A stretch of DNA of 63,681 bases, filler included, from an uncultured virus (IMG/VR IMGVR_UViG_2061766007_001711) (lineage: Duplodnaviria > Heunggongvirae > Uroviricota > Caudoviricetes). It is 5 parts of one record of this genome, joined end to end, with 100 filler letters (N's around TTAATTAATTAA, not from the genome) between each part and the next. Parts side by side here need not be neighbours in the genome. Positions count along the whole stretch, not along the records: positions 32,233 to 54,293 come from IMGVR_UViG_2061766007_001711; 4 more parts are not named here. One strand, given 5' to 3'. Under the pieces are notes generated by a model. That model ran no database searches. It was given only the letters and a program-made list of their open reading frames with translations, and had not been told where the DNA came from. Each line of letters starts with the position of its first letter. The stretch's first letter is position 1. Positions 32,612 to 35,048 of the stretch are shown here, piece after piece. Both the position numbers and the translations under genes were made by a program.

Positions 32612-33193
32612 ATGACCGACCAAATCTCCTTTTTACCGATGCTGGACGAGATTGATAAGCCGGAGCCGTTGTACGTCAAGGTTAAGCGCAGGGCCGAGGC
32701 CATCTGCAAAGAGCTATGGAACAAGCACAAGGGCAACGTCCGCGAGTACGTCGCGGAATGTGTTGACCGCTTCGCAAAAGAAAACCTCCCGTGGTACGAT
32801 TTACGCGAGGACGATCGCGTGCAATACGACGACGTGGTGGGCGAGTGCTTCTCATGCGGCAAGCCTATTACTGCGCGGGATATTTGCAAAGTGAGTGCTA
32901 TTCACTACACGTGGGTTCGCAAGGACGGAAAGAACATAAACGCATACGTACATTACGACGATGTATGCACTAAAAAGAGCTTAATGGACTACGAGGAATT
33001 CCACGAAGTTTATTTACGGCTCACTGGCTACACCGACGAGGAATACATACAGAACATGAAGCGCGACCATCCGAGCGTGTTCTACGCTCGCGTCAAGGCC
33101 GGAGTGTATGACGAAGAAGGACACCGCCTGCACCCTGAAGGATGGCTATGCCAACCGAAAAGGAAGAAGCGCAAGGCGAAGGAGGTGGCATGA
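32612..33193 (+). CDS. hypothetical protein
   Basis: 193-aa ORF with GAGGGG RBS; CFSC motif. Confidence 0.65.
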   Translation: MTDQISFLPMLDEIDKPEPLYVKVKRRAEAICKELWNKHKGNVREYVAECVDRFAKENLPWYDLREDDRVQYDDVVGECFSCGKPITARDICKVSAIHYTWVRKDGKNINAYVHYDDVCTKKSLMDYEEFHEVYLRLTGYTDEEYIQNMKRDHPSVFYARVKAGVYDEEGHRLHPEGWLCQPKRKKRKAKEVA

Positions 33194-33251
33194 CACGCAA
33201 GATTAAGGACACAATCAAGCAGGCGGCGCTCTGGGTCGTCGNNNNNNNNNN

Positions 33252-33351
33252 TTGCAGCGACTCGCAGGCTTATCGGATGTTGGGCAACGGCTGGACGGTC
33301 GAGGTCATCAAGCACTTTTTCTCGTTCCTGCCGTTCGAAAGGGAGGCATAA
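33252..33351 (+). CDS. C5 cytosine methyltransferase, motif X fragment
   Basis: SDSQAYRMLGNGWTVEVIKHFF. Confidence 0.8.
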
Positions 33352-33479
33352 TGAAGGACACAATCAAGCAGGCGGCGCTCTGGGTCGTCGCCGTAACAGC
33401 GACCATGTTCATCGTCTGCTCCGTCATGGGCGGAATCGCGCTCATGATTTTCGGGGCGATTAAGTGGATTGGAGGATAG
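33351..33479 (+). CDS. small membrane protein
   Basis: MKDTIKQAALWVVAVTATMFIVCSVMGGIALMIFGAIKWIGG; alleles at 33190 and 40482. Confidence 0.6.
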   Translation: MKDTIKQAALWVVAVTATMFIVCSVMGGIALMIFGAIKWIGG

Positions 33480-33494
33480 AATGANNNNNNNNNN

Positions 33495-33540
33495 GCTCCA
33501 CAGCATCGTCTCGCGGGTCCGACTCCCGCGATTGCCTCTA
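33495..33540 (+). tRNA. degenerate tRNA-like 3' half (5' part lost in gap)
   Basis: T-arm-like GCGGG-TCCGACT-CCCGC followed by 7 nt, T and CTA (not CCA). Confidence 0.3.
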
Positions 33541-34281
33541 GCCTGCGGGTGCAGGCGAACGAAGCCCCAGCGCACGGATTCAGCGGTGGACACCTTCTTT
33601 TGAAGGTGGACAGATAGTAACAAAGACGTTACGAGAATCTTCTCTGTTCTTCGCTTGCGACTAGATGGCCACTTATGAAGAAGGCGTGAAAACACGCCCC
33701 TTATGGGACGTGGGAGTTCGTAACACTACGAATACTCGAAAAACGGTTCTCTAGCATCTCGGGGTATGTCATCCGGACCGCACGGGCGGAGATGCAGCGG
33801 TAGGAACGGCGAGACCCGTTCCGGCATATTTCGAGGATTGGGCGCGGTCACGCACCTCGGTAAAACAACNNNNNNNNNNCGTAGGGGTGATTATTACGAG
33901 ATTCGGCTCTTATTCCACCGTTGCTGTGGGCTACTGCTAAACCTTGCTGATAAGCACAAACGGAAAAATTCCGGCCCCTGCTCAAGAAGGGTATGTCACC
34001 GCACCGTGGCGGTCTTGAGCACACGGAGGCAAGGCTAGACCCTTGTCGGCATATTTCGAGGATTGCAGGCGGTCAAGTACCTCGATAAAACAACCTGCAC
34101 AATTTTGGCCCACGGGTGCATACAGAATAAGACCGAAAGCATACCCTTACGACCGCACCCTACGGGCCCACGAACTAGCCCCTCCGAGCACTCCAAACAC
34201 GGACCCCTTCACGCTCGGACGGGGCGACAAGAATGCCGAGGATGAACTAACGATTCCGAGGCAGGCGGGGCTGGAATCATG
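33537..34281 (+). ncRNA. cluster of structured non-coding RNAs (two strain versions)
   Basis: No credible ORF; dense hairpins; the module at 33754-33869 recurs at 33979-34099 with compensatory changes. Confidence 0.75.
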
Positions 34282-34348
34282 NNNNNNNNNNAAACCAGTA
34301 AAAGTCGAACCGACGAAAGCCCCGCAAAACTTTTAAAAGGACAAAAAG

Positions 34349-34462
34349 ATGGCGCAGCTTGACTTATTCCCAGACTTGAAAATTAAACGGACGAGAGCCT
34401 CCAAAGAATACTGGGCTTTCACGGACAAGTTCAAGACCAAGCTCACGACAGACGACTGCTAC
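34349..34462 (+). CDS. N6-adenine methyltransferase (NPPF type), N-terminal fragment
   Basis: KFKTKLTTDDCY continues as TPEPVY at 36555. Confidence 0.65.
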
Positions 34463-34609
34463 NNNNNNNNNNCTCCGAAATCGACAAGCACGCCATCAAG
34501 CAGACGATGCTGAACTTTCCCGACACCGTCCAGCTTGGCAGCGTGACCGAGGTTGACGCACGTAAACTCGGACACATTGACCTGCTTATCGGTGGNNNNN
34601 NNNNNAAAA

Positions 34610-35048
34610 ATGATAATGAACCTCGGACTACCATATAAAGGGAGTAAGAACACCATCGCGAACGACATCGTGAAGGCGCTCCCGCGCGGGAAGAAGCTCC
34701 TCGATGCGTGTTGCGGTGGCGGCGCGATTTTGATGGCGGCGGCCATGAGCGGACGCTGGGAGAAGGTCGTGGGGAACGACCTCAACGCGGCGACGATTGC
34801 CTTGCTTGACTCGGTGCTCATACACAAGGGTCAAATCGAATACGAACACCCGCCCGTCTGCACGCGCGATGACTTTTTTCACAGCCTGCAACGCATCGAG
34901 AACGGCGACTTTACCATCCAGGACTGCGTGAACAAGTACTGCGCGAGCTTTGGGAATGACGGAAAGACGTATTTATACGGGGCCGATTTGGAAGCGTGCA
35001 AGACGACCGCAGAGGAAATGCTCGCAGGCGCCACTCTTGAAAACAGAC
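34610..35048 (+). CDS. D12-class adenine methyltransferase, N-terminal fragment
   Basis: GLPYKGSKN...LLDACCGGGAI...VGNDLN...SFGNDG; a middle fragment with LER repeats is at 36004-36259. Confidence 0.8.

Follow-up and report, generated by a model that had tools for sequence, protein, structure and literature searches.

The stretch of DNA analysed here, 63,681 nucleotides (nt) long and hereafter called the window, contains a contig of the uncultured virus IMGVR_UViG_2061766007_001711, in which two copies of a pseudoknotted RNA element lie in tandem on the + strand. All positions count along the whole window, in which many short runs are masked as N. The source is a tailed-phage contig with genes for a major head protein, a portal and a large terminase on the - strand. 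Genes for an exonuclease, a Sak4-like annealing protein and SSB lie on the + strand, with a DNA methyltransferase further on. The element occupies a gap of ~870 nt (33480-34348) that is poor in open reading frames (ORFs) and flanked by + strand genes. Our analyses showed that the two copies represent a new modular structured-RNA family on the + strand of rumen phage genomes, and that each copy consists of two blocks that also occur independently.

Architecture of the module

A preliminary description of this place had drawn a repeat unit of 76 nt, and every strand that it named is present where it was placed. The unit, however, is longer, ~135 nt (33749-33873 and 33976-34098): the direct repeat extends to 33869 and 34094 with 82% identity and includes a second, H-type pseudoknot made of helices S1 and S2 (Table 1). 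The 5' block has the strand order P0a-P1a-P0b-UAUGUY-P3a-P1.1a-P3b-P1b-P1.1b and constitutes two interlaced H-type pseudoknots, connected via the adjoining 3' strands of P1 and P1.1. Helix P0, absent from the preliminary list, is formed by 3-6 nt 5' of P1 that pair with 3-6 nt 3' of the P1 5' strand (for example GACC/GGTC, GCTACC/GGTGGC, GCTCCC/GGGGGC, CTCT/GGGG, TCCT/GGGA or CCT/AGG), and the P1 5' strand hence sits in a hairpin loop. The P1.1 5' strand is itself the loop of hairpin P3, and the conserved UAUGUY lies between P0 and P3. Only ~5 nucleotides of this block are conserved, and its helices vary freely. A single knotted rod of ~20 base pairs (bp) could arise if P0-P1 and P3-P1.1 stack on each other.

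The 3' block comprises the P4 hairpin with the loop consensus CNNGA(N), the conserved linker GGYAKMUUY and an H-type pseudoknot with an A-rich loop, in which the loops AUU, CGGUCAYGYA and RUAAAACAA are conserved. S1 reads CGAGG/CCTCG, and S2 reads GCAGG/CCTGC in copy B and GGGCG/CGCCC in relatives of copy A. Positions 33870-33879 are masked, and the S2 3' strand of copy A is readable only in close relatives (L005 and L184, L numbers denoting loci). Free-energy z-scores of the single copies were weak, -2.36 and -1.54 on the + strand and -0.42 and -1.78 on the - strand, and left the strand undecided, nested folding being blind to knots.

Table 1. Positions of the structured elements at the RNA locus
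Feature	Positions	Strand	Basis or remark
tRNA-like element, 5' half masked	33460-33541	+	T-arm-like hairpin 33512-33530, acceptor-like strand, CTAG 33538-33541
Covarying hairpin	33542-33555	+	
Conserved element E1, GAACGAAGCCCC...GGATTCAGCGGTGG	33556-33592	+	
Motif ACGAGATTCG-CTCTTATTC, two copies	33629-33650, 33894-33912		
Copy A, 5' block	33749-33801	+	sequence, structural parse, covariation, model match 33743-33877
Copy A, P0	33749-33752/33761-33764	+	
Copy A, P1	33754-33760/33789-33795	+	
Copy A, core TATGTC	33765-33770	+	
Copy A, P3	33772-33775/33783-33786	+	
Copy A, P1.1 (loop pseudoknot)	33777-33781/33797-33801	+	
Copy A, 3' block	33803-33873	+	sequence, direct repeat, covariation
Copy A, P4	33803-33809/33816-33822	+	loop CGAGAC
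Copy A, linker GGCATATTT	33823-33831	+	
Copy A, S1	33832-33836/33855-33859	+	
Copy A, S2 5' strand	33840-33844	+	3' strand from 33869, remainder masked
Copy A, loop CGGTCACGCA	33845-33854	+	
Copy A, A-rich loop	33860-33868	+	
Copy B, 5' block	33976-34026	+	sequence, structural parse, covariation, model match 33970-34102
Copy B, P0	33976-33978/33989-33991	+	
Copy B, P1	33979-33987/34013-34021	+	
Copy B, core TATGTC	33992-33997	+	
Copy B, P3	33999-34002/34009-34012	+	
Copy B, P1.1	34004-34008/34022-34026	+	
Copy B, 3' block	34028-34098	+	sequence, direct repeat, covariation
Copy B, P4	34028-34034/34041-34047	+	loop CTAGAC
Copy B, linker	34048-34056	+	
Copy B, S1	34057-34061/34080-34084	+	
Copy B, S2	34065-34069/34094-34098	+	
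Copy B, loop CGGTCAAGTA	34070-34079	+	
Copy B, A-rich loop	34085-34093	+	
Downstream hairpins, three	~34106-34168, 34179-34225, 34262-34330	+	inverted repeat I15; fold of L210; region 34106-34335, up to next gene

Homologues, covariation and independent blocks

An 18-mer from the linker retrieved nine viral loci, eight of them true, and one true locus among 16 matches in genome contigs. A pattern for the 3' pseudoknot retrieved 17 viral loci, and a 19-base pattern 57 metagenome loci, which by their flanks divide into 46 true and 11 chance matches. The covariance model R1, built from ten relatives (alignment A4) and run over 64 sources, gave 65 matches. These were 46 full modules (E <= 3.4e-22) and 19 weaker matches, namely 16 loci with the 3' part only and three cut by contig ends. 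Within the window R1 matched only the two known places, with 89.6 and 105.3 bits, and every other full-module locus carries a single module. A third, degenerate copy considered near 34240-34340 gave no model match at E<=1.

Covariation was assessed in an alignment of 35 distinct modules (A6), the homologues coming from rumen phage contigs. This alignment was fitted to P1, P3, P4 and S1 and is biased to structure for these four helices, with P0, P1.1, S2 and P2 outside the model. Standard pairs are formed by 93.8% of 1412 cells, compared with 72.1 +/- 0.8% in shuffles (0/500 as high), and sliding the partners by 1-3 columns reduced pairing to 35.2-39.9%. Changes on both sides occurred at 29 of 42 pairs (22.0 +/- 1.6 in shuffles), with a covariation score of 0.503 versus 0.137. 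Both-side changes were seen at 7/7 pairs of P1 (98.4% of cells paired), 6/7 of P4 (95.9%), 4/5 of S2 (97.6%), 3/4 of P3 (92.7%), 2/5 of S1 (99.4%), 2/4 of P0 (93.8%) and 4/4 of the P1.1 core (78%, partly out of register). In the 3' block, two crossing helices are kept by compensatory change, as expected of an H-type pseudoknot.

A structure-guided parse of 36 unique modules yielded 13 distinct strand pairs for P1, 15 for P1.1, 13 for P4, 10 for P3, nine each for P0 and S2, and four for S1. When partners were swapped between them, few matched the length of their own helix for P1 (4/156), P1.1 (7/210), P4 (4/154) and S2 (3/68); the counts for P0, P3 and S1 were 14/68, 10/86 and 5/10. G.U pairs are frequent, with 12 at the first P1 pair and U.G in 35/35 modules at columns 30-97, which points to an RNA of the + strand only. 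The strong covariation of P1, P3, P1.1 and P4 bears out what the preliminary description had expected of homologues, and all helices except P2 covary, as a real RNA structure does.

One might still suspect a DNA-level signal, such as a replication origin, a packaging or a recombination site, or simply a chance repeat: the direct repeats lie in the module for replication and recombination, where genes for the exonuclease, the Sak4-like protein and SSB precede them. Yet the compensatory changes accept G.U and not A.C, on one strand only, and the swap and slide controls oppose a chance repeat. Moreover, none of 111 other TATGTM sites, among the loci listed by a loose pattern search, was folded by the parser. 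We regard an explanation at the DNA level or by chance as extremely improbable.

The blocks are also found alone. Besides the full modules, the 3' block stands by itself in 13 distinct sequences, and in L183 a 158-codon ORF lies upstream of it. A scan for the conserved element E1 upstream of the modules returned 27 viral loci. Sixteen of these lack a strong R1 match, one being cut by a contig end. In the other 15, a 5' block follows E1 at a distance of 23-28 nt and stands by itself, without P4, linker or H-type pseudoknot. Twelve of these lone 5' blocks parse automatically; by eye, two have the core UAUGUU and one a single P1.1 mismatch.

Rfam gave no match in the window, either at gathering score or at E<=10, and Rfam 15 found only tRNA in the relatives' loci. 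The novelty proposed in the preliminary description thus withstood the family scan that it had suggested, as did its view of a distinct covarying pseudoknotted RNA class in a phage non-coding RNA cluster; the clusters of relatives carry tRNAs. A literature search returned no description of the interlaced pseudoknot topology, with a catalogue of 8,495 IMG/VR candidate RNAs (PMC10690425) being only partly searchable. Four motif strings of the module do not occur in the searchable part of its supplement; the rest may contain an unnamed prior listing. With ~26 distinct 5' blocks, >45 loci and seven covarying helices, a new structured-RNA family is well supported.

P2 and the likeness to HDV-like ribozymes

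The two modules had been described as sharing the strand order of HDV-like ribozymes (HDV, hepatitis delta virus), which requires a helix P2 between the core and the strand following P4. Such a helix can be drawn (TATGTC/GGCATA); as a conserved element it does not hold, being hardly compensated and having a dispensable 3' strand. P2 is fully paired in 17 of the 36 modules, the remaining 19 having 3-5 of 6 pairs, and nearly all variation falls on the 3' strand and is uncompensated. In the 35-module alignment, two P2 pairs are invariant, two outer pairs are unpaired in 11/33 and 11/34 cells, and a single cell is compensatory. Among the 15 lone 5' blocks behind E1, 13 have no complement to the core within 200 nt downstream, G.U allowed. 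Conversely, the linker, the region of the P2 3' strand, is kept in the 13 distinct sequences limited to the 3' block and lacking UAUGUC. P2, which can be dispensed with and shows no covariation, is thus no part of the conserved fold, and the architecture of the family is not that of the HDV strand order; the covarying helix at this place is P0, which pairs the 5' flank of P1.

Other contacts were considered as well. An alternative partner for the UAUGUC core was rejected, as no complement is kept in the locus and 6/13 distinct loci have none. By eye, the P4-loop CUAG showed no pairing with the CUAG that follows the tRNA-like element (locus listings), and the P4 loop no covariation with the linker (module listings).

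The HDV-like fold consists of helices P1, P1.1, P2, P3 and P4 in a nested double pseudoknot (PMC8495972), with a catalytic C at the first position of J4/2 whose change to U inactivates (PMC10879173, PMC8495972), and the cleavage-site G.U is described as essential (PMC8495972). Theta ribozymes are phage-borne, HDV-like and tRNA-linked, with cleavage within +/-5 nt of the tRNA (PMC10879173). The modules could be self-cleaving, either as an HDV-like variant or as a new class. In one version, the 5' block would be a circularly permuted HDV fold with P0 in place of P2, cut between P0 and P1. Several features resemble such a ribozyme: P1 mostly has 7 bp and opens with G.U in 12/34 cells, the P3 hairpin loop pairs with the strand just 3' of P1, and P1, P1.1 and P4 are consecutive as in the HDV coaxial stack. 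In addition, the P0 3' strand takes the position of the HDV P2 5' strand, and the locus is a phage locus with tRNAs, as for theta ribozymes (PMC10879173).

Nevertheless, the ribozyme reading fails each HDV hallmark that was tested. Over 34 cells the first P1 pair is C-G in 12, G.U in 12 and G-C in 10, so that the G.U at +1 is not conserved. The absence of the catalytic strand, already recognized in the preliminary description, extends to the family: P4 is directly followed by G or A, with no C opening a J4/2. The nearest C (of GGC, columns 29-98) is U in 4/35 modules, the last core letter is C, A or U, and lone 5' blocks exist without any P4 or linker. P1.1 has 4-7 bp rather than 2 bp, and the conserved nucleotides are as few as noted above. 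Unlike the theta ribozymes of gut phages, the block does not lie within 5 nt of a tRNA 3' end: in relatives, P1 starts >130 nt after the upstream tRNA, or else a downstream tRNA follows the end of the unit by 2-3 nt. Rfam models of HDV-like ribozymes gave no match at E<=10 on 33300-34400, and no ribozyme of the clan was found in the relatives.

Sequences recorded as RNA also bear on cleavage. Ten such rows, all from bovine gut, contain part of 33496-33869, and five short contigs (170-312 nt; four runs, three studies) fall entirely within 33555-33866. Four of these five span the would-be cleavage site 33753/33754, although they may represent uncut precursor or DNA. The bridging contigs thus argue weakly against efficient cleavage at P1. 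Two contigs from different studies begin at 33555 and 33558, just past the hairpin before E1. These are assembled contigs from runs chosen with 33496-33869, and RNA libraries can hold DNA; the lack of contig cover at 33000-33554 and 33871-35000 is uninformative, given the choice of runs and the other flanks of the relatives. We take the contigs as a hint of expression, and consider a ribozyme quite improbable.

tRNA-linked setting and possible roles

Wherever the flank of a relative is long enough, a tRNA-Met or a tRNA-like element precedes the blocks. ARAGORN found no tRNA and no transfer-messenger RNA (tmRNA) in the window, and neither ARAGORN nor the Rfam tRNA model placed a gene over the modules in relatives. 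A real tRNA-Met lies upstream in L176, L043, L208 and L244, taking the place of the window's tRNA-like element in L176, L043 and L244. In L232 there is an upstream Rfam tRNA match of 38.7 bits over 99 nt, and in L047/L183 ARAGORN reported a 'tRNA-???' of 92 nt; in both cases this is a tRNA-like element whose anticodon region is enlarged. The tRNA-like element combines a GGTTCGAWTCC-type T-arm with an acceptor-like stem that is paired. After another 3-4 nt (CTAG, TAG, TAA or CTA) it is followed by the covarying hairpin and E1; this hairpin likewise begins 3-4 nt after tRNA-Met in L176, L043 and L244, and follows the 99-nt match in L232. On the other side, three lineages have a tRNA whose start lies 2-3 nt past S2; it is a tRNA-Thr in two of them (L173/L196; L176) and a tRNA-Met in the third (L047/L183). 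The blocks of L176 hence lie between tRNA-Met and tRNA-Thr, within a tRNA array. Most relatives have a conserved RCAAGTTTA and no tRNA 3' of the 3' block. A tmRNA or permuted tmRNA was rejected: the tRNA-like halves are both upstream, and there is no ARAGORN or Rfam support.

E1, with the pattern GAACGAAGCCCC...ACGGATTCA...GGTGG, is commoner than the module, occurring in six genome contigs besides the viral loci, and what immediately precedes it is always a tRNA, a tRNA-like element or some other structured region. The E1 region at 33542-33592 has no Rfam match. Four of the genome contigs belong to Fibrobacter metagenome-assembled genomes from ruminants (L252, L254, L255 and L256), one of these contigs carrying a full module; the others are from Coriobacteriaceae (a 2.6-kb contig) and Bacteroidales. 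This suggests rumen Fibrobacter as host of the phage group, although binning of phage contigs is uncertain.

Relatives with a single module have an ORF-free gap of ~730 nt, 3' of the homologue of the window's SSB gene. Each has one unit, either A-type (compare 33600-33869) or B-type (compare 33880-34106), and in the window the two types follow each other in tandem. The motif ACGAGATTCG-CTCTTATTC, a hairpin followed by TTATTC, occurs two to three times per locus in the interval from E1 to the module, relatives included. For the region matching 34106-34335, folding of L210, a relative free of N, gave z = -2.82. The last downstream stem (GCGGGGCT.../...AGCCCCGC) is followed by AAAACTTTT and then by the ribosome-binding site of the next gene. 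In L209 and L213, the 3' pseudoknot is followed after 60-95 nt by a strong hairpin with a T run that resembles an intrinsic terminator (columns ~745-780 of alignment A7), which would give an RNA of ~560-600 nt.

Just upstream of the RNA locus lie two overlapping small ORFs of 69 and 75 amino acids (33142-33479), seemingly small paralogous proteins in tandem, without a family match; a direct repeat of 45 nt (33197-33241 and 33346-33390, 93% identity) is common to both. Downstream lies a 54-codon ORF (34349-34513) that the N mask at 34463-34472 probably truncates. Over its first 38 residues it shares 82-97% identity with protein starts in L210 and L218, where the reading frames comprise 231-243 amino acids and are cut by the locus ends. 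Pfam searches of flanking ORFs across the loci revealed no partner that is constant; the only domains returned, ParB and methyltransferase, lie downstream in some of the loci.

How might the blocks function? We tentatively propose that they are non-catalytic, nuclease-resistant architectural knots of a tRNA-linked phage transcript. This reading is favoured by the free variation of the helices, the handful of conserved nucleotides, the possible knotted rod and the placement of the blocks where the cutting of tRNAs would create free RNA ends; so few conserved nucleotides in the 5' block fit an architectural role better than an active site. Mechanically stable knots would give a long tRNA-linked transcript nuclease-resistant ends and a fixed architecture. 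tRNA-processing enzymes would cut this transcript at the preceding tRNA or tRNA-like element and, in some relatives, a second time at the tRNA following the locus. The 3' pseudoknot would then terminate the upstream RNA with an overhang of 2-3 nt, while the hairpin and E1, with or without the 5' block, would open the downstream RNA. In the window, duplication or recombination may have put an A-type and a B-type unit in tandem.

Similar arrangements are known. H-type pseudoknots are strung beside a tRNA or tRNA-like structure in tmRNA (PK1-PK4) and in the 3' upstream pseudoknot domain of tobamoviruses, and there, too, sequence is free and pairing is kept. In these systems, however, the knots are consecutive, whereas two knots are interlaced here, and the phage element has no tag reading frame and no 3' CCA end. 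The 3' end of MALAT1 is made by RNase P, with a blunt triple helix of U-rich and A-rich strands preceding the tRNA-like mascRNA, and exonuclease-resistant viral RNAs are likewise known. The phage knot resembles these in being compact, in containing an A-rich strand and, in three lineages, in ending 2-3 nt short of a tRNA; its topology could stall exonucleases. Unlike in MALAT1, most relatives lack a tRNA behind the knot.

Several observations weigh against the knot proposal. With most relatives lacking a tRNA behind the 3' block, RNase P can form the end in no more than a minority. The loops of the 3' pseudoknot, strictly conserved, and the CNNGA loop have the look of a specific binding or tertiary-contact site, for which a mere roadblock would have no use. 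Nuclease resistance itself is deduced solely from the topology. In the stretch, scans found no promoter-like site, no terminator-like site on the + strand and a single one on the - strand.

The conserved loops would suit a binding RNA, in which they form a pocket or platform for a small ligand, a phage or host protein or a tRNA-directed host enzyme, for instance as a decoy or tRNA mimic. Against variable stems, AUU, CGGUCAYGYA, RUAAAACAA, CNNGA and the linker change hardly or not at all. From P4 to RCAA the 3' block measures ~75 nt, the size of a tRNA, and in L176 the blocks occupy the place of a gene in the tRNA array. In L232, L244 and L249, a start codon lies 10-25 nt past the end of the 5' block. 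Yet the Shine-Dalgarno-like AGGA of L244 lies outside the fold, an expression platform is not apparent, searches matched no riboswitch or tRNA-like family, and the neighbouring genes vary among relatives, with no constant regulated gene or partner. A binding function does not strike us as likely.

The setting also recalls GOLLD and ROOL, phage or prophage RNAs near tRNA genes according to PMC12286853, which places GOLLD env-38 downstream of a Met-tRNA. Our loci share with them the phage origin and the position beside tRNA genes, here tRNA-Met, tRNA-Thr or tRNA-like elements in relatives, as well as a long ORF-free stretch with covarying helices and pseudoknots; like ROOL, they are from rumen. 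The entire stretch of 0.73-0.87 kb, with covarying hairpins along its whole length, might hence be one large ornate RNA of this kind, whose blocks build a three-dimensional, perhaps multimeric, particle. Against this, neither the window nor 20 relatives' loci match Rfam GOLLD or ROOL. Blocks are shuffled among relatives, lost, or split by a protein gene (L183), as independent units would be. An RNA of the GOLLD or ROOL kind would be one molecule of >500 nt that forms homo-oligomeric cages, and the observations here comprise an ORF-free length of 730-870 nt and short RNA contigs. We consider domains of an ornate RNA unlikely. A more far-reaching form of the knot proposal, in which the blocks are exonuclease-stalling, swappable caps for RNA ends created by tRNA excision and, together with E1, make up a third ornate class beside GOLLD and ROOL, is conceivable but doubtful.

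If the whole stretch proves to be one RNA, it would add a class to the very few large ornate RNAs. Should the blocks indeed shield the ends left by tRNA processing, bacteria and their viruses would be using a principle of transcript stabilisation that is new, and such end protection would provide a source of compact stabilising elements for synthetic RNA. For a test system, one could turn to the cultivated members of Fibrobacter. In general, the family indicates that phage tRNA loci carry reusable RNA blocks, which are combined, duplicated and lost like protein domains.

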